Program-made: the position numbers and the translations under genes
The notes under the pieces: generated by a model
Told to the model about the DNA's origin: nothing
Seen by the model: the letters and a program-made list of their open reading frames with translations, nothing else
Databases searched by the model: none
Source of the DNA: Nitrospirota bacterium
GTDB taxonomy: Bacteria; Nitrospirota; UBA9217
DNA: 64,000 nt
Direction of reading: 5' to 3'
NCBI GenBank assembly: GCA_963840455.1
Contig: CAWIYV010000001.1
Span: forward strand, 96,001 to 160,000
In this document: positions 22,601 through 49,981 of the stretch, one piece after another
Numbering within the stretch: position 1 is the stretch's first letter
Layout: every line of letters begins with the position of its first letter

Positions 22601-22646
22601 CAAAAAGCCGGACATACCGAAAGTGATTCCTTCGGCAGCCCGGCTG
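22601..22646 (-). terminator. intrinsic terminator overlapping the 3' end of the riboswitch aptamer
   Basis: minus strand AGCCGGGCTGCCGAAG-GAATCA-CTTTCGGTATGTCCGGCT-TTTTG. Confidence 0.8.
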
Positions 22647-22709
22647 TCTTTTCCAAAGACCCGTTGCTTTCCGCGCCCTCTTCACAGAGGGTTTGGCTTT
22701 ATCGGGAAT
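22626..22709 (-). ncRNA. c-di-GMP-I (GEMM-I) riboswitch
   Basis: minus strand CGATAAAG-CCAAACC-CTCT-GTGA-AGAG-GGCGCGG-AAAGC-AACGGGTCT...AGACAGCCGGGCTGCCG fits the GEMM-I consensus with a GNRA loop and receptor. Confidence 0.92.
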
Positions 22710-26912: not shown

Positions 26913-27971
26913 TTACCGGTGCCCGTATTTATAATATGCCGCGCAGCTGCCTTCCGTGCTCACCATGCAGGGGCCTACGGGGCCGTCAGGCGTGCAGCCG
27001 GTGCCGAAGAGCGGGCATTCCGTCGGTACCTTGACCCCCCGCAGGATATCGCCGCAGGAGCACAGTTCCGGCTCGGCGATGCCCGTGGACTCGGGGCGGA
27101 AGCGAGCTTCCGCATCGAACTCCCGGTACTTCTCTCTCAACTTCAGGCCGGTTCCCGGCAGGACGCCGATCCCGCGCCAATAGGCGTCGGAAGGTTCAAA
27201 TATGTCGTTCAGGATCTCGACGGCCCGGGGATTCCCTTCCGGCCTGACAACCGTAGGATAGGCATTCTCCACCTTCGCCTCCCCTTTGGCGATCTGACGG
27301 ACGATCATCAGGATCCCCTCGATTATTTCGCCAGCCTCGAAACCGGTCACGACCGCGGGCTTTCGATAGTCCTTCGCGACGAATTCGTAGGGCGCGAGGC
27401 CTATGATCGTGCTTACGTGTCCCGGAAGAATGAAGCCGTCCACGCGTACGTCGGGGGCATCGAGGAGCGCCTTGAGGGCGAGCGGAACGGTCTTGTGCGA
27501 TGATAGGATGGTGAAATTCTTCACCATTTTTTTGAATGCGGCAAAGACAGTGCCGGCAATGAGCGGAGACGTCGTCTCGAACCCGGTGGCAAAAAAAACG
27601 ACCTGCTTCGAACCACTCTCCTGTGCAAGCGTCAAGGCTTCCATGGGCGAGTACATCACCCGGACGTCAGCGCCTTCTGATCGCGCTTCCAGGAGCGACT
27701 GTTTTCCGCCCGGCACCCGCATCATGTCCCCGAAGGTCACCAGGACCGTGTTCGGCTGTTTCGCGATCGAGATCGCCGCGTCGACGTCCCGGATGGACGT
27801 CACACAGACCGGGCATCCGGGGCCGCTCAAGAGCGTTATCGTGTTCGGAATGATCGAACGTATCCCGTGGCGGAATATCTCGACCGTATGGGTCCCGCAG
27901 ACCTCCATGAGCTTGAGCGGCCTTTGGATCGTTCCTGTCAGATGATGGAGCTCGTCGATCATCTGTTTCAT
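26913..27971 (-). CDS. hypD: hydrogenase maturation factor HypD
   Basis: MEVCGTH, GPGCPVC, GFETT, PGHVS, GPCMVSTEGSC. Confidence 0.97.
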   Translation of the reverse strand: MKQMIDELHHLTGTIQRPLKLMEVCGTHTVEIFRHGIRSIIPNTITLLSGPGCPVCVTSIRDVDAAISIAKQPNTVLVTFGDMMRVPGGKQSLLEARSEGADVRVMYSPMEALTLAQESGSKQVVFFATGFETTSPLIAGTVFAAFKKMVKNFTILSSHKTVPLALKALLDAPDVRVDGFILPGHVSTIIGLAPYEFVAKDYRKPAVVTGFEAGEIIEGILMIVRQIAKGEAKVENAYPTVVRPEGNPRAVEILNDIFEPSDAYWRGIGVLPGTGLKLREKYREFDAEARFRPESTGIAEPELCSCGDILRGVKVPTECPLFGTGCTPDGPVGPCMVSTEGSCAAYYKYGHR

Positions 27972-30361
27972 GATCTTGTTCCCTTCTTTAATCGCGCACG
28001 GACCAGGTATGCCTGTCCGAGCGAGATACATGCATCGTTTGGCGGCATCTGCACATTCGTATAAACACGCAGAGCGTCGGCCGCCAGCAGGTTCATCGTC
28101 CTGGTGAGCAGGTAGCGGTTCTGAAAAGTGCCGCCGCTCAAGGCAACGTCACGGATACCGGTCCTCTGATGGAGATAACGTACCGTCGTCCTGATGGCCG
28201 AAGCAATCGTGTTATGGAACCGCGTGGCTATTACCGGGTTCGGCTCTTTCCGTGTAAGATCGATTATCACTCCACGGATGGCATTGGAAAAATTAACGAC
28301 AGTATACTCATTCTTCTCCGTGAAAACAACCGGATACTCACTGTCGATACCGGCCTCCGTCAGCGCTTCGAGGGCCATCGCCGCCTCTCCTTCGAACGTG
28401 TTCCGGTCGCAAACCCCGATCATGGCTGAGACGGCGTCAAAGAGCCTTCCTGCGCCTGATGCCAGCGGCGACAGTTCCCGGATCGACGCGATCTTCGCGA
28501 TCTGTTCAATGGCCTCCCGGCCATACCGCTGCGGGAAACCGATCGCTTCAAGCTGTTCCATTGCATCGACATCTGCTGCCGAATTTATATAACTGACAGC
28601 CGTCCTCCAGGGCTCCCTGATTGCAGCTTCTCCACCGGGAAGCGGAATATAGCTGATCTGACCGGCCCGCTCAAAGCCGTCGACATCGGCGAGAAGAAAC
28701 TCTCCACCCCAAAGGTTGCCGTCCGTGCCGTATCCGGTCCCGTCGAAAGCAACTCCAATGATTTTTTCCGTAAGTCCGTGTTCGGCCATGACAGACCCAA
28801 TATGGGCATAGTGGTGCTGAATCGCGAAGAGCGGAAGATTACGCTTTATCCCCTGTTCCTTTGCCCACCGTGCCGACAGATAACCGGGATGCAGATCGTG
28901 AACAATCGCGGATGGATCCACGCGATAGACCTGCTTAAGATTGGCGAGACTTTCTTCATAGAACTTCAGGGTTTCATAGTTCTCCATGTCCCCGATATGC
29001 TGGCTGGGGATCGCAAACGATCCTTTGGTGAGGGTAAAGGTGTTCTTGACATCGGCACCGCAGCCCAGGACCTCGGGTCCGCTGTCGCGAAGGGCTATCG
29101 CCTCAGGGGCATAACCGCGAGCGCGTCGCAGGAACAGGAGAGACGGATATTCTCTCTCTTCCGAACGTCCGCCATTACGCTCTCCGATCCCAGCGTTCCG
29201 GACTCGCACCACTGAATCATCGACGCGCATGAAGATGTCCCGGTTGTGGAGCAGGAACGCATCCACGAGACCGGACAGCTTTTCCATGGCATCATCATTC
29301 CGGTGCACGATCGGCTCCTCAGACAGATTACCGCTCGTCATGATAAGTGTGGTCAAGGCGCTTGCTGCCGTACCAGGACCGCCACCCCTGCCCGAAAACA
29401 GTAAGGCATGCAGCGGCGTGTACGGGAGCATGCATCCGATATGCTGATTGTGCGGCGCTACAGCATCGGACAGCAGGAAGCGAGCCCTTTCTGGACGCTT
29501 CTTTTTCAGGAGCACGATCGGTCGCTTCGGTGATTCAAGCACTTCCTGTTCCATCCGTGTCAGTTCGCAGGTTCCCCGGATGACGTCGATGGATGCGGCC
29601 ATGACCGCGAACGGCTTGTTGCTTCTCCGTTTCCGCTCGCGCAGGATCGTGACCGCTTCATGGTTCGTGGCATCGCAAGCGAGGTGGTAGCCGCCCAGCC
29701 CTTTGATGGCAACGATGCCGCCCTTCTCCAGGACCTCGATCGCGGCGAAGAGCGGATCGCGCTCGTTCGTGGCATATCCGGGATTCAGGACCTTGAATTC
29801 ACACGCCGGCCCACACTGCGGACAGGCGATGGGCTGGGCGTGAAACCTCCGGTCTGCCGGATCATGATATTCCTTCGCACATGCCGTGCACATCGGAAAC
29901 ACGGCCATGGTCGTGTTCGGCCGGTCGTAGGGAACAGCGCGAGTGATGGTATAGCGAGGACCGCAGTTCGTGCAGTTGATGAACGGATAGCGATAACGGC
30001 GATCGCCTGGATCGTTCAGTTCTCGAAGGCAATCGCGGCAGAGAGAAACATCGGAGGAGATGAGCGTGAACGGACGGGTCTCGGAAGACTGCGTACTTTC
30101 GCGTATGGTAAACCCCTGATACCCCTGGAGCGGAAGCGGAGTGACCGCGACGTCGGTGATACGGGAGAGCGGCGGTGCTTCGGCGGGAAGACGGCGGATG
30201 AACTCAGGGACCGCAGAACCTTCGATATCGATATACACGCCGTCCGCGGTATTAGTAACGTATCCTGAAAGCCCGAGGCCGGTCGCAAGGGCATAAATGT
30301 AAGGCCGAAAACCAACTCCCTGGACGACCCCGGTTACTGCGATCTGAGCCCGTTCAGCCAT
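27968..30361 (-). CDS. hypF: carbamoyltransferase HypF
   Basis: acylphosphatase GVVQGVGFRP, two Zn fingers, YrdC domain, QHHYAH, DGTGYG. Confidence 0.97.
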   Translation of the reverse strand: MAERAQIAVTGVVQGVGFRPYIYALATGLGLSGYVTNTADGVYIDIEGSAVPEFIRRLPAEAPPLSRITDVAVTPLPLQGYQGFTIRESTQSSETRPFTLISSDVSLCRDCLRELNDPGDRRYRYPFINCTNCGPRYTITRAVPYDRPNTTMAVFPMCTACAKEYHDPADRRFHAQPIACPQCGPACEFKVLNPGYATNERDPLFAAIEVLEKGGIVAIKGLGGYHLACDATNHEAVTILRERKRRSNKPFAVMAASIDVIRGTCELTRMEQEVLESPKRPIVLLKKKRPERARFLLSDAVAPHNQHIGCMLPYTPLHALLFSGRGGGPGTAASALTTLIMTSGNLSEEPIVHRNDDAMEKLSGLVDAFLLHNRDIFMRVDDSVVRVRNAGIGERNGGRSEEREYPSLLFLRRARGYAPEAIALRDSGPEVLGCGADVKNTFTLTKGSFAIPSQHIGDMENYETLKFYEESLANLKQVYRVDPSAIVHDLHPGYLSARWAKEQGIKRNLPLFAIQHHYAHIGSVMAEHGLTEKIIGVAFDGTGYGTDGNLWGGEFLLADVDGFERAGQISYIPLPGGEAAIREPWRTAVSYINSAADVDAMEQLEAIGFPQRYGREAIEQIAKIASIRELSPLASGAGRLFDAVSAMIGVCDRNTFEGEAAMALEALTEAGIDSEYPVVFTEKNEYTVVNFSNAIRGVIIDLTRKEPNPVIATRFHNTIASAIRTTVRYLHQRTGIRDVALSGGTFQNRYLLTRTMNLLAADALRVYTNVQMPPNDACISLGQAYLVRARLKKGTRS

Positions 30362-30981
30362 TGAGCCCACGCATCGATCCCGGTTCCTGCAGAACATGAC
30401 ACCTCGAAGACCTTGAGCTTCGGGTTCAGCGCCAGGGAATCGTTCCTCATCTTATTGATGTCAACCTTCGTGTACGGCAGCAGGTCTATCTTGTTCAAGA
30501 CCAGGGCGGAGGATTCCTGGAACATGAGCGGATACTTGAGTGGTTTGTCATGGCCCTCTGCTATGGAGAGCACCATCATTTTGATGTCCTCGCCGACCTT
30601 GAACTCCGCGGGACAGACCAGGTTGCCCACGTTCTCGATGATGAGCATATCGAGCTCTTTGAGCGGCAACTCGTCCAGGACCTCGTTGATCATGTTCGCG
30701 TCAAGATGACAGGCGCCGCCGGTATTGATCTGCACGACCGGGATATCGAGCGCACCGATCCGTTCCGCGTCGTCCTGACCGACGATGTCCCCCTCAATAA
30801 CCCCTATCCGCAGATGCGGCTTGAGCCGTGTGATCGTCTGTTCAAGGAGCGACGTTTTCCCCGCTCCCGGTCCACCCATCAGGTTCGCGACGAATACCCC
30901 TGCTTCCTTGAACCGCTTTCTATTCTCCTCGGCGATCCTGTCGTTCGCTTCGAGGATTCTCGATACCACTTTAACTTTCAT
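30334..30981 (-). CDS. hypB: hydrogenase nickel incorporation GTPase
   Basis: GAGKT, CHLDA, ENVGNLVCPA, DKPLKYP, NKID; no His-rich N-terminus. Confidence 0.97.
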   Translation of the reverse strand: MKVKVVSRILEANDRIAEENRKRFKEAGVFVANLMGGPGAGKTSLLEQTITRLKPHLRIGVIEGDIVGQDDAERIGALDIPVVQINTGGACHLDANMINEVLDELPLKELDMLIIENVGNLVCPAEFKVGEDIKMMVLSIAEGHDKPLKYPLMFQESSALVLNKIDLLPYTKVDINKMRNDSLALNPKLKVFEVSCSAGTGIDAWAQWLNGLRSQ

Positions 30982-30998
30982 TGATAGCTTCCTTTTTC

Positions 30999-31030
30999 AT
31001 TCCGCACTTCGCACTCCGAATTCCGCACTC
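30999..31030. repeat. heptamer tandem repeat
   Basis: ATTCCGC ACTTCGC ACTCCGA ATTCCGC ACTC. Confidence 0.6.
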
Positions 31031-31032
31031 GA

Positions 31033-31572
31033 TCAATGCATTTCCATATCCGAGATCTCCATCTCCCGTCCCCGGGTGATCTCAAAATCGTTCGAGCCGC
31101 AGTGGGGACAGGCGAAGACATAGGGGACCTCTTTTTCGTCAAAATCCTTCTTACAGGTCTTGCAGTTCCCTCCGACCGGAACGATCTCGATCGTAAGCTT
31201 TGCGTTCTTTGCTTTCGTTGGTTCCTTGAGAGCATCGAAGGCGAACTGGAGCGATTCCGGCATCACGCCGGTGGCTTTGCCGAGCCGTACGGTCAAGGCG
31301 TCGACCACCGAACATCCTTGTTCGGCACATTGTTCATCAATGATCTCGATGATGCTGTGAGCAATAGAGGATTCATGCATGATCTCACCTGTCTGGAATG
31401 CCTCGGCCCTGATCGTCTGGATCGCGAAACCCGCGTGGACCAGGACAAAGTCGCCGAGCTGCGGCGTTTCGGGAAGCAACATGATGTTCACTTCCTTCCG
31501 GGCGCCGTACACGTCAATCGTCGCTATATCGTTATCGATGGAAATTATTTTTGAGGGGACCGCAAGACACAT
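31033..31572 (-). CDS. hypC-hypA: fused HypC-HypA hydrogenase maturation protein
   Basis: MCLAVP...LVHAGFAI (HypC) continues in frame, with no stop, into MHE...CKTC...CPHC...GRE (HypA, Met at 31380). Confidence 0.88.
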   Translation of the reverse strand: MCLAVPSKIISIDNDIATIDVYGARKEVNIMLLPETPQLGDFVLVHAGFAIQTIRAEAFQTGEIMHESSIAHSIIEIIDEQCAEQGCSVVDALTVRLGKATGVMPESLQFAFDALKEPTKAKNAKLTIEIVPVGGNCKTCKKDFDEKEVPYVFACPHCGSNDFEITRGREMEISDMEMH

Positions 31573-32042
31573 GGTATGTTCCACTCCCGGAGCTTTGCCA
31601 CAATGCGCTCGATAAGAACATCTTTCTTATCCCATATCTCCGGGGTCATGTCAAGACCGAGTTCGAGGCTCTTAGGCTGGATTCCGATGATACAGAGGTC
31701 CTTCGGGATGTTTCCCGACATCCGGACGATGCACAGGACATCCATAAGCCCCAGGTGGTGCATGGATGCCTTCTGGGTGAGCCTGATCGGGATCGAATCG
31801 TTCTCCAGGAGATCGATGTATCCAGGTTCCCGGTCGAAGTTCACCGCATCGACCATCATGACCTTTTCACGCCCTTCGATGAATGGGATAAGGTCGAGTC
31901 CGGCTGCGCCGCCATCCACGATCTCGACATAATCTGGCACCTCGTACCGACGTTCGAATTCGTTGACCGTATGCACACCGACACCTTCGTCGCTCATAAG
32001 GATATTACCGAGCCCCAGAATGGTAATGGTCGGTTCTTTCAT
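31545..32042 (-). CDS. hybD: hydrogenase maturation endopeptidase (HybD/HyaD)
   Basis: LGLGNILMSDEGVGV, VDGG, VDA, SMHH. Confidence 0.93.
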   Translation of the reverse strand: MKEPTITILGLGNILMSDEGVGVHTVNEFERRYEVPDYVEIVDGGAAGLDLIPFIEGREKVMMVDAVNFDREPGYIDLLENDSIPIRLTQKASMHHLGLMDVLCIVRMSGNIPKDLCIIGIQPKSLELGLDMTPEIWDKKDVLIERIVAKLREWNIPCVLRSPQK

Positions 32043-32130: not shown

Positions 32131-33831
32131 TTACAGGGCCTTCACCGTGATGATATCTTTCCCTTTCGCATCGACCATGTGAATGGCGCAGGCCAGACAG
32201 GGATCGAAGGAATGCACGGTCCGGAGGACCTCCAGAGGCTTTTCCGGGTCCGCCAGCGGCGTGCCGATGAGCGATGCTTCGTACGGGCCGGGTTGATCGC
32301 TTCCGTTCCGCGGGGCTGCGTTCCAGGTTGAAGGAACGACGCACTGATAGTTTTTGATCTTCCCGTTGTCAATGACGCTCCAGTGTGACAGGATGCCGCG
32401 CGGCGCCTCGTGGAAGCCAACGCCCTTGATCTCGCCGCTGGGGAACTTAGGCGCGTTGAAGGTCTTCACGTCGCCTTTGCCGATGTTGGCGACCAGAGCG
32501 TTCCACTGGTTCGTGCACTCATCTAACAGCACCGCGCAGCGCACGGCGCGGGCGCCGATGCGGCCGATGGTCGAATGCAGCGCTGCTGGTCCGACCTTGG
32601 TCTTGGCAACTGCACTGATCGTGTTTAGCATGTCGGTGACGTACTTCTTCGTCCCCGCATGACCGGCTGCGTACATGCAGAGCACATTGGCCAGCGGACC
32701 GACCTGGGCGGTCTTGCCGTTGAACGTCGGCGCCTTGACCCATGAGTATTTTCCATCATACTGCATGCCCGTGTGGTTCGGGTCCGTAGACTCCTCCCAA
32801 GGATGCTTGTTCCAGTCGCCCTTATACCAGGAGTGCTTGACGCTCTCTTTTACGCCGTTCTTGAAGAACTCGTCATTGAAGCTCTTGATGGGCTTAAAGG
32901 TGCTGAAATCGGCGTTCTCGATGTATCCGCCCGGAAGAGCAAAGGTCGTTCCCTTCGTGTCCATGGGCATATCAGGAGCCGAAAGATAGTTCGTCACGCC
33001 TTTGCCGTACCCGGTCCAGTCGGCATACAAGGCTGCTACGGCCGCCACATCTACGAGCATGGCGTTCCTCACGAAGCTCTGGACCTCGTCGATAAGTGTC
33101 TTGATGTAGTAGAGCCTCTCCATGTTGAGCGCCGACTGGTTCTCCGGATTGATCGCGTTCGCCACGCCGCCGACCGCCAGGTTCTGGATGTTCGGCGTCT
33201 TGGACCCCAGAATGGACACCACCATGTTGATCCTGCGCTGGTAGTGGAGCGCCTGGAGGTAGTGTGCAGTAGCAAGGAGGTTCACCTCGGGCGGCAGTTT
33301 CATGGCCTTATGGCCCCAGTAGCCGTTCGCGTAAATGCCGAGTTGGCCGCTTTTTACAAAGGTCCCCAGCCGGTCCTGGACTTCCTTCATGTGCTTCGTG
33401 CTGTTCTGGTCCCAGTTCGAAAGGCTCTCACCGAGCTGCGACGCCTTCTTGGGGTCCGCCTTCAGGGCTGAGACGATGTCGACCCAGTCAAGGGCAGCCA
33501 GGTGGTAGAAATGCACAATATGATCATGGACGCCATGGGCTGCCATGATCAGGTTCCGGATATATTGCGCGTTCAGCGGTATTTCGAGCTGCAGGGCGTT
33601 CTCAACCGACCTCACCGAGGCCAGTGCGTGAACAGACGTTCAAACCCCGCAGATCCGTTGGGTAAAGAGCCAGACCTCCCGGGCGTCCCTGCCCTTCACG
33701 ATGTTCTCGATCCCGCGCCACATCTGGCCGGACGACCAGGCCTTGCTGACCTTGCCGTTCTCCACTTCGCATTCGATGCGCAGATGGCCTTCGATCCTGG
33801 TGATTGGATCTATAACGATTCTTTTCGACAT
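32131..33831 (-). CDS. hybC: [NiFe]-hydrogenase large subunit (HybC, group 1c) with in-frame TGA, probable selenocysteine at residue 64
   Basis: ORFs 33640..33831 and 32131..33615 share a frame and join as RICGV-TGA-TSVHALAS; 566 codons; C-terminal DPCLACAIH plus a 15-aa cleavable tail. Confidence 0.9.
33598..33639 (-). promoter_or_regulatory. putative bacterial SECIS element
   Basis: 9-bp stem ACUGGCCUC/GAGGUCGGU (two G-U pairs) with GGU loop, 23 nt 3' of the UGA; lower GUUC/GAAC pairing possible. Confidence 0.75.
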
Positions 33832-33856: not shown

Positions 33857-35038
33857 TTATGCGTGCTCAGCCTTCGGCAGCACGGGGAATGTCTTGACTA
33901 TATACAAATAGGCCATGATCTCGAAGGAAATGATGCCCAGCGTTATCATGGTCTCCCCGAACGAGGGGAAATAGTTCCAGTTGTTCCCGGGATTGAACCC
34001 GACCAGATACGTGTCGAAACGATAGACCGCTCCGGCCAGCACCATCGCAGCTGCCGCCAGAAAGAGCTGCTTGGGCCGAGAGCGGTTCGCTGCCTGCAGG
34101 AGGATGATGAACGAATAGACATACAGGGCGTTCTCGATCCAGAACGCAAGGGCGTACTTGTTGAACTGGAACGCCATCCCGAACGCACCCCGCCAGAGCA
34201 GATCAGCGACCCGCACCAGGAGATAGGCACCAATAAGCCAGGGGATGATCCCCGAGAGCTTCGACAGGAAGGGCATCTCGATCTCGCGCTTGAACCCAAT
34301 GGATGAATAGATGGACTCAAAGACCACCATCGCGTATCCCATGGTGATGGCCGAGATCAGGAAGAGCAGAGGCAGGAATCCCGTCTGCCAGAGCGGATGG
34401 AGCTTTGCCCCGGAGATATACATCAGCGTGCCGAGCGAGGACTGGTGCATGGTCGGCAGGAGTACCCCAACGGCAATGAAGACGAATAACCACTTGTTCA
34501 GCGTCTTATGGATGCCTTCGACCTTCCATCCCTGGACGAACTTCGGCAGCTTGTCCTTGTGTTTGATGATGCCTTCCAGAAAAGCAGGTGTGAATTCGAT
34601 CCAGAGCACGGTGGTATAGGTCATCACGCAGAAGGCGACTTCAAACATGGTCGAGTTGATATTCGCATACCACGGGGTGAAGAGTTTCCAGCCATTCCAG
34701 TACCGTCCGATGTCAACCATGATGGATGCGCCCGCAAGCGTGTAGCCAAATACGCCTGCGAGCAGCGCGGGACGGACAAGCGGATGATACTCACCTTTGT
34801 TCATGACATAGACCAGCAATGCCATGGAATATCCGCCACAGGCTATGGCCGTGCCCACAACCACGTCATAGGCGATCCAGATGCCCCATGGATAACCGTC
34901 GTTCAGGTTCGAGACAGCCCCGATCCCGAAGATGTAGCGGATGCCGATCAGGATGACCGCAACGCCGAACAAGCCGGCAAAGAACAGAAATGGCTTGGTC
35001 AAAACATTTCCGCCTAAGGGTCTGCTTTCTTCCGACAT
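33857..35038 (-). CDS. hybB: hydrogenase-2 integral membrane subunit (NrfD/PsrC family)
   Basis: LNDGYPWGIWIAYDV, DIGRYW, LPTMHQSSLG, YFPS. Confidence 0.93.
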   Translation of the reverse strand: MSEESRPLGGNVLTKPFLFFAGLFGVAVILIGIRYIFGIGAVSNLNDGYPWGIWIAYDVVVGTAIACGGYSMALLVYVMNKGEYHPLVRPALLAGVFGYTLAGASIMVDIGRYWNGWKLFTPWYANINSTMFEVAFCVMTYTTVLWIEFTPAFLEGIIKHKDKLPKFVQGWKVEGIHKTLNKWLFVFIAVGVLLPTMHQSSLGTLMYISGAKLHPLWQTGFLPLLFLISAITMGYAMVVFESIYSSIGFKREIEMPFLSKLSGIIPWLIGAYLLVRVADLLWRGAFGMAFQFNKYALAFWIENALYVYSFIILLQAANRSRPKQLFLAAAAMVLAGAVYRFDTYLVGFNPGNNWNYFPSFGETMITLGIISFEIMAYLYIVKTFPVLPKAEHA

Positions 35039-35055: not shown

Positions 35056-36009
35056 TTATTTGTGATCCTTCGTGTTCTTATGCACCACGTACAGCAGACC
35101 GCCGAGGAATACGATCGGCGCGATCATGCCTTTGTAGATCGTGTGATTCAGCGTTTCCGACCGCTTCGCATCCGAAGCTTCCGTCAGGCTCGGCATGCCG
35201 AGCTTTTCGAACGGCACACCGGTAAGATAGAGGATCTGCGTGCCGCCGCCATCTTTCTCGCCATAGATCTTCTGGATGTAGGGGGTCACATCCCGCTCGG
35301 TCGTGACCGATCCACCGAGTTGCTCTACCGGATAGTTCTGTCGGCTCCCCGGTTTGTACTGGAGCCGCTTCCTGGCTTCAGCGAGAAGGTCTTCCACCTT
35401 GCCGTATACCGTGGCTCCCGTGGGACAATTCTTGGCGCACGCCGCAAACTCGCCCTTCTTCATCAGGTGATCGCATAGCTGGCATTTGCGGATCTGCGGG
35501 AAGGCCTTTTCAAATTCGAACTTCGGAACATTAAACGGACAGGCAAGTTGGCAGTAACGGCACCCGATGCAATTACCCTTATCGTAGCTGACAACGCCGG
35601 TCTTCGGGTCCTTGATCAGTGCCGATACCGGACATGCTGAAACACACGCAGGGTCCGTGCAGTGCATACACTGCCGCTTGACGTAGGCATGGCCGTCCTT
35701 TTCCCGGTCCTTCGCCACCCCCGTACCGTCTTTATAGAGCTTGATGATATTTAAGGTCTTGGAATCATCGTCTAACGCATTGTCCCAGAGCTGATCGCTC
35801 GAGGAGAAGCTCGGCGGCATTTCATTCGCCTGTTTGCAGGCGGAGACGCAGGCTTTGCAGCCGGTGCAGACCGTCGAATCATAGAGAAAGCCTACCGCAT
35901 CCTTTGCTCGCTCCTTGGGCTCGCGGGCAAGGACCGGATGTGCACTGGACGCCGCCATGAGGCCGCCGGCTGCAGCAACTTTCAGGAAATCTCTTCGTTT
36001 AATTTCCAT
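35056..36009 (-). CDS. hybA: hydrogenase-2 Tat-exported 4x[4Fe-4S] ferredoxin subunit
   Basis: KRRDFLK Tat motif; CTGCKACVSAC, CMHC..PACVSAC, CIGCRYCQLAC, CQLC..CAKNC; C-terminal TM. Confidence 0.93.
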   Translation of the reverse strand: MEIKRRDFLKVAAAGGLMAASSAHPVLAREPKERAKDAVGFLYDSTVCTGCKACVSACKQANEMPPSFSSSDQLWDNALDDDSKTLNIIKLYKDGTGVAKDREKDGHAYVKRQCMHCTDPACVSACPVSALIKDPKTGVVSYDKGNCIGCRYCQLACPFNVPKFEFEKAFPQIRKCQLCDHLMKKGEFAACAKNCPTGATVYGKVEDLLAEARKRLQYKPGSRQNYPVEQLGGSVTTERDVTPYIQKIYGEKDGGGTQILYLTGVPFEKLGMPSLTEASDAKRSETLNHTIYKGMIAPIVFLGGLLYVVHKNTKDHK

Positions 36010-36029: not shown

Positions 36030-37166
36030 TTATTTTTTCCCTTTGCCTTCATCTTCACCCAGCTTATGAGCAACTTTATTCACTGCTGCGAACGCAGCTC
36101 CAGCGGCTGCCGCTGCGACGACAACACCTCCGATGGTCGCACCCGTGCTCGCACCTTGCCTTTCTGCGATGTGCGGATAGGTGTCTGGTGGGGTCACCAT
36201 ATGCAGGCTGGCCTTGGTGAAGAGCGGCTTATGGAATCCGATGCCCTTCTCAGAGCATCCAAAGCACGGATGACCGCATCCTACCGGCCATGTTCCAGCG
36301 CCAGTATCGCCGAATAGCAGAGAAGGGCAATTGTTGAATGTCTCAGGCCCCTTGCACCCAAGCTTATAGAGGCAATATCCCTTGCGATGGTTGTCATCAC
36401 CGAACTCTGTGGCGAACCGGCCAGCGTCAAAGTGCGGCCTGCGCTCGCAGTTCTCATGAATGAGCCTGCCATAGGCGAACTTCGGCCTGGCCAACTCGTC
36501 GAGCTCCGGCAGTTTCTTGAAAGTGACGAAGTACAGAACGGTCGAAAGGAAATTGTAGGGATTCGGCGGACATCCGGGGATGGAGACCACCGGCGTCTTG
36601 ATGCCTGCGTCGGTGAGTATCTTATGAACCGGTGTGGCACCTGTCGGGTTGGGATCAGCGGACGGTACACCGCCCCAGGACGAGCAGGAACCCATCGCCA
36701 CGATCGCGAAGGCATCCTTGGCCGTGTCTTTAAGGATGTCCAGGGCCGTCCTGCCGGCAATCATGCAATAGATGCCGTTGTCCTTGACCGGTATGGCGCC
36801 ATCCACGACGAGGATGAACTTGCCTTTGTTCTCCTTGATCGAGGTTGCTCGTGCTTCCTCAGCCTGATGACCGGAGGGAGTGCTGAGCGTTTCGTGGTAA
36901 TCGAGGGAGATGAGATCGAGGATAAGATGTTCGAGGGTGGGATGTGTGGCCCGAAGCAGCGATTCTGTACAACCGGTACACTCCTGCGCCGACAGCCAAA
37001 TCACCGGCGGGCGCTTCGCCGCTCCTGCAACGGCCTCTGCGATCTGCTCGCCGGCACCGAGCGGCAGCCCCATGCCTGCGGCCACAATACTGCAATACTT
37101 GATAAACTCCCTGCGTGACACACCAAGCTGCTTGCTGACCGATTCAGTATCTTTGTTCTTCTTCAT
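36030..37166 (-). CDS. hybO: [NiFe]-hydrogenase small subunit
   Basis: SRREFIK Tat motif, QECTGC, PGCPP, HENC, CLYKLGCKGP, HPCFGC, C-terminal anchor. Confidence 0.95.
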   Translation of the reverse strand: MKKNKDTESVSKQLGVSRREFIKYCSIVAAGMGLPLGAGEQIAEAVAGAAKRPPVIWLSAQECTGCTESLLRATHPTLEHLILDLISLDYHETLSTPSGHQAEEARATSIKENKGKFILVVDGAIPVKDNGIYCMIAGRTALDILKDTAKDAFAIVAMGSCSSWGGVPSADPNPTGATPVHKILTDAGIKTPVVSIPGCPPNPYNFLSTVLYFVTFKKLPELDELARPKFAYGRLIHENCERRPHFDAGRFATEFGDDNHRKGYCLYKLGCKGPETFNNCPSLLFGDTGAGTWPVGCGHPCFGCSEKGIGFHKPLFTKASLHMVTPPDTYPHIAERQGASTGATIGGVVVAAAAAGAAFAAVNKVAHKLGEDEGKGKK

Positions 37167-46839: not shown

Positions 46840-46982
46840 GGGAATGAGCCGTCTCCTGGCTGAGGACATCCTACTCTCCGGCCTTCCCATCCCGCTCGCG
46901 GGACAGTGGCTTGTCCGGATTTCGTTTCCATCACAGTTGCGTGACAGCGGGGGATTCCCACCCCCTTCCGCTTCTCATTCCC
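46840..46982 (-). ncRNA. cobalamin riboswitch (upstream of btuB)
   Basis: P1 GGGAAUGAG/CUCAUUCCC, CGGAA, GCAACUGUGA, GCCACUG, GGGAAGG, AGCCAGGAGAC B12 box. Confidence 0.88.
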
Positions 46983-49742: not shown

Positions 49743-49794
49743 AAGGTACACATTAACCCACACATGATCTTAACGCCGAAGACTGTGCGAGAAA

Positions 49795-49958
49795 CATCCA
49801 GGCAGGTCTTCTGGCTCTCCCCCTTCTGCCAGCCTTCCCAGTCATGCGCTGCATGACCAGTGGCCTCTATCGACAGATGGTTGGCCTTGCTTGCGCAAGG
49901 CCGGGATCACAGCGGCGGGTCCGCTCCCGGTTCTCACGGGATTCCCTTCGCCTGGATG
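49795..49958 (-). ncRNA. cobalamin riboswitch (upstream of btuF)
   Basis: P1 CAUCCAGGC/GCCUGGAUG, AGGGAAU, CCCGCCGCUGUGA, GCCACUGG, GGGAAGG, AGCCAGAAGACCUG. Confidence 0.92.
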
Positions 49959-49981
49959 AGTTCATATTGAGTTGTGACTTT

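Follow-up and report, generated by a model that had tools for sequence, protein, structure and literature searches.

We report a [NiFe]-hydrogenase large-subunit gene, related to hybC of Escherichia coli, in which an in-frame UGA codon takes the place of the cysteine codon for a ligand that bridges the two active-site metals. It lies in a stretch of 64,000 nucleotides from a Nitrospirota bacterium (contig CAWIYV010000001.1, positions 96,001-160,000, assembly GCA_963840455.1), the whole of which is called the window here. The gene is intact and forms part of a hybOABCD-hyp operon, its UGA is conserved and there is selection on both sides of it. It is probably a functional selenoprotein gene, encoding an uptake hydrogenase of the hydrogenase 2 (Hyd-2) type with selenocysteine (Sec) at the N-terminal bridging position. 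That Sec and not Cys is inserted, that the Sec bridges the metals, and any effect on catalysis, are inferences. The elements of the gene are these, numbered in the window.

32131-33831, minus strand: hybC-like [NiFe]-hydrogenase large subunit, 566 codons and TAA with one in-frame TGA, translated with TGA as U.
33640-33642, minus strand: UGA codon 64, proposed Sec (or Cys) at the position of the Ni-Fe bridging ligand, from translation and alignment to Cys64 of E. coli HybC.
33649-33651, minus strand: TGC codon 61, the first (terminal) Cys of the N-terminal motif, read from the sequence.
33605-33625, minus strand: putative Sec insertion sequence (SECIS) hairpin from folding, with a 9-bp stem (+15 to +23 with +27 to +35) and a GGU loop (+24 to +26).
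32188-32205, minus strand: C-terminal motif DPCLAC (Cys545 and Cys548), both Cys codons, from translation.
32134-32178, minus strand: 15-residue C-terminal extension past His551 from translation, the presumed substrate of HybD; mature PDB chains align only to residue 551.

The minus strand from 33660 to 33628 reads CAA CGG ATC TGC GGG GTT TGA ACG TCT GTT CAC, i.e. RICGV-U-TSVH. In the N-terminal RxCGxCxxxH motif the UGA takes the place of the second Cys, giving an N-terminal CxxU form; in [NiFe] hydrogenases this second N-terminal Cys bridges Ni and Fe. An earlier note on this DNA had described the TGA at codon 64 as the sole interruption of a 566-codon frame, and re-translation confirms it, there being no other stop between 32131 and 33831. 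Three of the Ni/Fe ligand codons (61, 545 and 548) specify Cys and the fourth, 64, is TGA, so that the usual four Cys are not all encoded. The note was also right that Cys is kept in DPCLAC, and that the cleavable tail and a HybD protease (31545-32042) are present. The best matches among solved structures are the HybC chains of E. coli Hyd-2; with 6en9_L (E = 3e-238) residues 1-566 are colinear with 1-567, and there is no gap in the alignment of the first 103 residues, which pairs U64 with Cys64 of HybC. The best NCBIfam model for the large subunit is NF007778 (hydrogenase 2 large subunit) at 884.6 bits, the Hyd-1-type model falling far below this at 509 bits. Since the curated equivalog cut-off of NF007778 is 969 bits, the window protein is a relative of the E. 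coli enzyme and not a strict equivalog by the NCBI threshold.

How well is the TGA conserved? Among 41 related genomes a single TGA is found at codon 64 in the species of the same genus (5 of 5) and in two further genera, while three orthologs at 72-78% identity have Cys there; close TGA-type relatives are L088 and L113, at 90 and 89% identity. The phylum was sampled by an even set of 401 genomes, of which 125 have a homologue at E <= 1e-150. Rows with at least 71% identity to the window protein are termed Hyb-type, and 35 of these cover codon 64. One TGA is present in 29 of the 35 and none in the other six. We translated 28 of the 29 (that of genome G244 was not fetched), and in each the TGA aligns with codon 64 and is the only stop. 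In the six orthologs of Cys type (L029, L031, L032, L179, L183 and L192) this position is TGC or TGT. The earlier note had asked whether relatives share the TGA, and the answer is that most do. That 28 orthologs of other genomes and species should have TGA at precisely this conserved Cys codon is far beyond chance.

An error of assembly or sequencing, the true codon being TGC or TGT, was also considered in the earlier note. Contigs containing all or part of the stretch are listed for 20 runs, which come from 11 studies. Four runs were compared over the TGA, two of DNA (wetland and soil) and two metatranscriptomes (soil and sediment); the run data are contigs, in which depth and uncovered bins carry no meaning. 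Contigs of all four cover 33640-33642 without any alternative letter, and variants occur at the neighbouring positions 33634, 33646, 33652 and 33655, all of them synonymous changes at third codon positions. We reject an error, which we regard as having a negligible chance of being correct, because the independent assemblies and runs keep the same TGA with third positions varying around it, and we found nothing in its favour.

A second possibility is that the TGA is a true stop, leaving either a pseudogene or a 63-residue peptide followed by a re-initiated fragment of 494 residues. Calling of open reading frames with table 11 does give exactly these two pieces, of 63 (33640-33831) and 494 amino acids (32131-33615), and the 494-residue piece is found in public databases; the earlier note had correctly foreseen that gene callers would split the gene. 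However, there is purifying selection on either side of the TGA. The ratio of nonsynonymous to synonymous substitution rates (dN/dS) between the window gene and its orthologs is 0.025-0.127 over codons 1-63 and 0.039-0.167 over codons 65-566 in eight of eight pairs. The TGA is moreover the sole stop, and is conserved in the 28 verified orthologs. The 494-residue piece would be without both N-terminal Ni ligands. The gene stands within an intact hyb-hyp operon and encodes the only Group 1 large subunit found; a tblastn search of the organism's own genome (4.03 Mb, 100% complete by marker genes) gave no other. On the dN/dS values and the conservation we reject a true stop as very improbable. A global reassignment of TGA is likewise ruled out. 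It is the commonest terminator of 1520 long frames in the genome (TGA 718, TAG 415, TAA 387), so that the genetic code is not reassigned, and hypF of the same operon also ends in TGA. A FastTree phylogeny of 127 rows has at least 14 changes of state, with Cys types nested among Sec types; as the sample was chosen for TGA and many forks are unsupported, we draw from it neither the direction nor the number of origins.

The UGA is followed by a hairpin at 33605-33625, ACUGGCCUC-GGU-GAGGUCGGU, and folding agrees with the earlier description of a 9-bp stem whose first loop G lies 24 nt after the UGA. In its geometry it fits bacterial SECIS elements, which stand close behind the UGA and have G at position one or two of the apical loop. 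When the 60 nt after the TGA were folded for FdhA1 and FdhA2, two formate-dehydrogenase-like proteins of the same genome, a 9-bp stem at +15 to +23 and a GGG loop at +24 to +26 were found. The geometry of the hybC hairpin is the same, with a GGU loop. In the window's subclade (15 distinct sequences) 94.1% of cells are paired, compared with at most 48% when the partner is slid. A second Hyb-type subclade (RFCGVU, n = 31) has an 8-bp hairpin at +11 to +30 with a GCUU loop, 88.3% paired and with no compensatory change. A sister clade within Group 1, discussed below, has a 6-bp hairpin (n = 53) that is 92.1% paired, with compensatory changes at three of six pairs (31 cells) and 0 of 500 shuffles doing as well. 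Paired bases of this last hairpin lie in two codons four apart (+7 and +11), and the residues covary as Ser/Ala, Cys/Ala, Ala/Gly and Ala/Ser. This keeps the base pairing, RNA structure shaping the protein sequence in the sister clade. There are thus at least three different hairpin solutions after the same UGA among the subclades, with loops GGU, GCUU, and CGUGA or CGUGC (nt +11 to +38). Folding all Hyb-type Sec genes together gave no usable RNAalifold consensus (-0.38 kcal/mol) because the subclades use different hairpins, and the three groups were then handled apart.

The components required for insertion of Sec are encoded in the genome; selA, selB, selD and tRNA-Sec(UCA), to which the earlier note had pointed, are all there. 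The canonical tRNA-Sec scores 66.5 bits and has a UCA anticodon and G73. The selA and selB genes are adjacent, and selD itself has an in-frame TGA, as do five formate-dehydrogenase-like genes, of which the four that were translated give a U-H-S motif.

C8:21374-24481, C8:28578-31700, C13:12639-15842, C9:238791-239519, C10:289793-290518 and C14:252661-253584, in the organism's own genome: five formate-dehydrogenase-like genes and selD, each with one in-frame TGA.

The organism uses Sec heavily. In the other TGA-type genomes selA is above cut-off in 27 of 28, the exception (G217) being 86% complete. We propose that the hairpin at +15 to +35 would recruit SelB with Sec-tRNA(Sec) during translation, whereupon UGA64 would be read as Sec. 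After Hyp-dependent insertion of the metals and cleavage by HybD behind His551, Sec64 would replace the N-terminal bridging Cys. The product would be a Hyd-2-type uptake hydrogenase, located in the periplasm, anchored to the membrane and linked to quinones, with a Ni-(mu-Se)-Fe active site. A working enzyme with a bridging Sec is plausible, given that the engineered variant C79U of E. coli Hyd-1 stays active.

A number of observations weigh against this reading and must be set beside it. Taken alone the hairpin is unremarkable: its minimum free energy is -17.2 kcal/mol (z = -1.52), a stability attained by 15 of 200 shuffled sequences. The subclade of the window itself shows weak covariation, with one compensatory pair, and its observed values are attained in 17-22 of 500 shuffles; the covarying hairpin that the earlier note had suggested seeking is clear in the sister clade and hardly so in that of the window. 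The G-U of the loop begins a conserved Val codon, and for this reason conservation of the loop is not independent evidence. The expectation that Cys-type orthologs lose the hairpin is borne out in part. Within the Hyb clade 49 Sec-type sequences, a number that includes two short UxxU fragments belonging to clade 2, were compared with six Cys-type; the means are -12.3 kcal/mol (47 CxxU) and -9.4 kcal/mol (Mann-Whitney p = 0.01, with no phylogenetic correction). However, the Cys-type ortholog L029 keeps a similar and more stable fold (-19.9 kcal/mol), and in the sister clade the folding energies of Sec and Cys types (55 and 11 sequences) are alike (p = 0.27). All six Cys-type genomes also have selA, so that presence of the machinery does not distinguish Sec type from Cys type. 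RNA libraries can hold DNA, and the contigs of RNA libraries that span the TGA are no proof of transcription. Finally, the genome holds a conserved selC*-type tRNA-Cys(UCA) beside the canonical tRNA-Sec, and the published members of the selC* class, in the available text of the paper that defines it, deliver Cys to SECIS-dependent UGA codons (Mukai 2017, PMC5389517). The earlier note overlooked this tRNA, and its presence makes Cys at UGA64 a live alternative.

G000:C9:389439-389529 (L002 1501-1594), in the organism's own genome (G000) outside the window: selC*-type tRNA, the second match of the tRNA-Sec model, 52.9 bits.

The acceptor stem of this tRNA is 8 bp long and its T stem 4 bp; it has a long variable arm, a G1:C72 pair, a UCA anticodon, and U73 before an encoded CCA. 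By BLAST, 21 of the 401 genomes of the phylum have a homologue; all belong to the window's family, in which 20 of the 63 genomes other than G000 carry one. Among the loci that were fetched, ARAGORN calls a tRNA(tca) in 19 of 22, and a T follows as discriminator; the acceptor stem shows compensatory changes. The 8/4 architecture, long variable arm, U73 and UCA are shared with the selC*/tRNA-ReC of Mukai 2017 (PMC5389517) as described in its available text, from which the present tRNA differs in having G1:C72 and not A1:U72, and in having no adjacent selB* or cysS*; its neighbours are a LysR-type gene and open reading frames without a family match. By the same account a dedicated selB* or cysS* occurs only in some lineages (Mukai 2017, PMC5389517). 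In the organism's own genome one selB and one cysS exceed the cut-off and no second copy of either was found. In the absence of selB* and cysS* the single canonical CysRS would have to charge the selC*-type tRNA, if it is charged at all.

UGA64 might then be read as Cys, always or when Se is scarce, by SelB delivering the selC*-type tRNA-Cys(UCA) to the same hairpin. This would result in an ordinary four-Cys Hyd-2, or a mixture of Sec and Cys forms set by the supply of Se. In favour of this are the tRNA itself (8-bp acceptor stem, U73, UCA), which is conserved in the family, and the demonstration of opal suppression with Cys, at an opal Sec codon, for the selC* class in what is available of the published work (Mukai 2017, PMC5389517). 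The same caveat, of tRNA-ReC and Cys, has been raised for Group 4 hydrogenases (available text of Takano 2026, PMC13582414). A search with the Rfam model of five TGA-type genomes of other families found a selC*-like tRNA-Cys(GCA) in three (G240, G311 and G075). These are long tRNAs of 90-99 nt with a long variable arm, matched by the tRNA-Sec model (L249 in G240, L247 in G311, L245 in G075), and U73 is clearly read in L245 and L249. In G075, which is 100% complete by markers, no canonical tRNA-Sec was found at E <= 1e-6.

Against a reading as Cys, the same genome has the canonical tRNA-Sec, the five formate-dehydrogenase-like genes and selD with their in-frame TGA codons, so that SelB must deliver Sec. 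The other two of the five genomes, G257 (a single contig) and G178, have the TGA hydrogenase gene and a canonical tRNA-Sec, and no selC*-like tRNA was detected in them by the Rfam model. Nor did BLAST find selC* in the TGA carriers G002, G011, G088, G113 and G009, though it may miss diverged copies. The lack of a second selB or cysS in the organism's own genome also counts against Cys. Constant insertion of Cys would leave nothing to maintain TGA over TGC or TGT in at least 28 species. Insertion of Cys is not the general explanation across the TGA carriers, nor a reason for the retention of TGA; for the window gene we consider Cys, alone or mixed with Sec, rather unlikely but the serious rival to the reading as Sec.

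How widespread are these genes? The pattern R-x-[C/U]-G-V-U-T-x-hydrophobic-H, applied to one genome per GTDB species, gave at least 120 stretches, and 80 loci were analyzed. These include at least 72 intact TGA-type hydrogenase genes. Among the matches listed there are 24 Hyb-type CxxU, 16 sister-clade CxxU and 32 sister-clade UxxU genes, together with six lacking hydrogenase homology and two whose frames are disrupted elsewhere. Some of these loci come from the same genomes as those of the phylum sample (e.g. L088 and L028), and the two sets overlap. By the titles of the records, the matches listed come from Nitrospirota, Thermodesulfobacteriota, Chloroflexota (Anaerolineae), Spirochaetota, Nitrospinota and Methylomirabilota/Rokubacteria. 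Two loci of metagenome-assembled genomes, L103 and L112, have the CxxU motif with several further stops or a frame break, and are assembly errors or decayed copies.

The sister clade of Group 1 shares 45-52% identity with the window protein, and its UxxU members have TGA at both N-terminal ligand codons. Examples are L033-L037 and L055-L058; in L034 (1501-3204, minus strand) the motif is RI-U-GV-U-TTVH and the C-terminal motif DPCMAC. In the phylum sample 95 rows at 49-56% identity were counted by hand, of which 51 have two TGA codons, 12 have one, 29 have none and three have TAG or TAA. Of those rows that were translated, five of five loci with two TGA codons are UxxU and six of six with one are CxxU, and the C-terminal motifs of translated loci all have Cys. 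A representative UxxU protein scores 648 bits with the Hyd-2 model, 631 with the Hyd-1 model and 581 with NF033181 (cut-off 600).

In public annotation such genes appear in truncated form. The 120 best database relatives of the read-through protein comprise 12 pieces of 485-495 residues (84-95% identity) and 108 full-length Cys types. The TGA-type loci L024, L172 and L113 equal 494-residue database proteins, while Cys-type loci equal proteins of 566 residues. The database proteins P0003 and P0012 and ten others are N-terminally truncated entries named 'hydrogenase large subunit', 485-495 residues long, and P0003 stands for 136 member sequences. Our literature searches found no printed account of a systematic truncation of hydrogenase genes with N-terminal TGA.

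The large-subunit gene is surrounded in the window by the other genes expected of a Hyd-2 operon.

36030-37166, minus strand: hybO-like small subunit with the twin-arginine signal SRREFIK close to its N-terminus and a hydrophobic C-terminal stretch (TIGR00391, 465 bits, cut-off 179.5).
35056-36009, minus strand: hybA-like Fe-S subunit (NF008134, 439 bits, cut-off 263).
33857-35038, minus strand: hybB-like membrane (cytochrome b-type) subunit (NF008133, 526 bits, cut-off 450).
31545-32042, minus strand: hybD-like maturation endopeptidase (TIGR00140, 154.2 bits, cut-off 151.8).
27968-31584, minus strand: hyp maturation genes, with HypC-HypA in one frame at 31033-31584, HypB at 30334-30981 and HypF at 27968-30397.

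In the frame at 31033-31584 HypC (starting MCLAVP) and HypA (starting MHESS) are read without an intervening stop, and may be a fusion. Elsewhere the window contains two cobalamin riboswitch aptamers (46851-46969 and 49784-49970, both minus strand, 78-81 bits) and a c-di-GMP-I-GGC riboswitch (22630-22706, minus strand, 69 bits).

The likeness to E. coli Hyd-2 (HybOABC, Group 1c; PDB 6EN9/6EHQ) is extensive. The large subunit is colinear over its full length, the genes are in the order hybO-hybA-hybB-hybC-hybD, the small subunit has a twin-arginine translocation (Tat) signal, SRREFIK being read as such from the twin-arginine consensus motif, and there is a C-terminal tail with a specific protease. 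The differences are that codon 64 is TGA and not Cys, and that the NF007778 score of 884.6 bits lies below the cut-off of 969. With the canonical [NiFeSe] enzymes (HysAB of Desulfovibrio and Desulfomicrobium, Group 1a, and Vhu/Fru of methanogens) the gene shares a UGA-encoded chalcogen ligand of Ni and dependence on selABCD. Their Sec, however, opens the C-terminal motif and serves as a terminal ligand of Ni, whereas the window protein has DPCLAC there. Membership of the HysA-type clade was rejected, since both models score below cut-off (HysA model NF045518 344.3 bits, cut-off 780; NiFeSe small-subunit model NF045520 236.5 bits, cut-off 470) and there is no Sec in the C-terminal motif. The window enzyme is thus a separate lineage from the HysA type, with a different ligand position.

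Is a bridging Sec new? The earlier note knew of no characterized natural example, and as far as our searches reach none exists. The kind as such has been noted in print. In the available text of Takano 2026 (PMC13582414) two Group 1 sequences with an N-terminal CxxU are mentioned, citing Baltazar 2011, and by that description alone they share the group and motif position of the window enzyme. The Discussion of the same paper predicts that Sec in an N-terminal CxxU bridges Ni and Fe (Takano 2026, PMC13582414), a wording that agrees with the general assignment of the second N-terminal Cys used above. The available text of Evans 2021 (PMC8020662) speaks of 'purported' natural examples of bridging Sec, again citing Baltazar 2011, and names a C-terminal bridging Cys, C579. 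Takano 2026 (PMC13582414) further describes, in the text available, 47 sequences of Group 4 whose N-terminal motif is CxxU, UxxC or UxxU, of which UxxC and UxxU are called previously unrecognized; these enzymes are membrane-bound, energy-converting and rare (~0.2%, the authors' figure). In contrast, the window enzyme is a Group 1 uptake type whose Sec form is the majority of the sampled phylum orthologs (29 of 35). A 2026 selenoproteome review lists only UxxC hydrogenases in its available text (PMC13188914). Our literature searches found UxxU for Group 4 only. They gave no account of how common CxxU is in Group 1, of a UxxU form in that group or of a characterized bridging-Sec enzyme, though Group 1 cases or such tRNAs may be listed in the supplements of Takano 2026 and Mukai 2017. 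The N-terminal bridging-Sec kind is thus already noted in print and, as far as these searches reach, never characterized. What is added here is its conservation, its breadth across phyla, the Group 1 UxxU clade, the co-resident selC* tRNAs and the gap in annotation.

The nearest experimental system is an engineered one. In E. coli Hyd-1 the motif order is C76-x-x-C79, making C79 the second N-terminal Cys, which we take to be the bridging one. According to the available text of Evans 2021 (PMC8020662), the C79U variant has 13% of the native rate of H2 oxidation, the highest of four Sec variants; its KM for H2 is lowered and its activation enthalpy raised, and little activity is left under prolonged 10% O2. 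It differs from the window enzyme in being artificial, made by UAG/EF-Tu insertion, and in belonging to an O2-tolerant Group 1d enzyme (Evans 2021, PMC8020662). Natural bridging-Sec enzymes may carry compensating changes relative to this variant. Our literature searches found no isolated natural enzyme in which Se bridges Ni and Fe, and the engineered E. coli variant provides the only data.

To our knowledge all studies of [NiFeSe] chemistry have dealt with a single position, that of the terminal ligand in the C-terminal motif, beside the proton-relay glutamate. Genes with UGA at the N-terminal bridging position are common and conserved, and probably expressed, in bacteria of wetland, soil and sediment. 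Since public annotation hides them as truncated proteins of 494 residues, surveys of hydrogenase diversity and of selenoproteomes undercount them. We suggest tentatively, and as an idea that is unlikely to hold, that in Group 1 hydrogenases of Nitrospirota and their neighbours the N-terminal UGA codons could be a Se-responsive dual code, read through SelB as Sec when Se is available, with Ni-(mu-Se)-Fe sites as the result, and otherwise as Cys by a co-resident selC*-type tRNA (UCA or GCA) acting on the same hairpin. Truncated annotation might then be hiding what is the prevailing uptake hydrogenase of the whole phylum. Two active sites of different chemistry would come from one gene, and in the sister clade, where both N-terminal ligand codons are UGA, the site formed with Se would hold two selenium atoms. 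The genes are targets for study of the effect of a bridging selenolate on catalysis and O2 sensitivity, of how one SECIS may serve two UGA codons nine bases apart in the UxxU clade, and of whether the site can be switched between Sec and Cys through selC* tRNAs.

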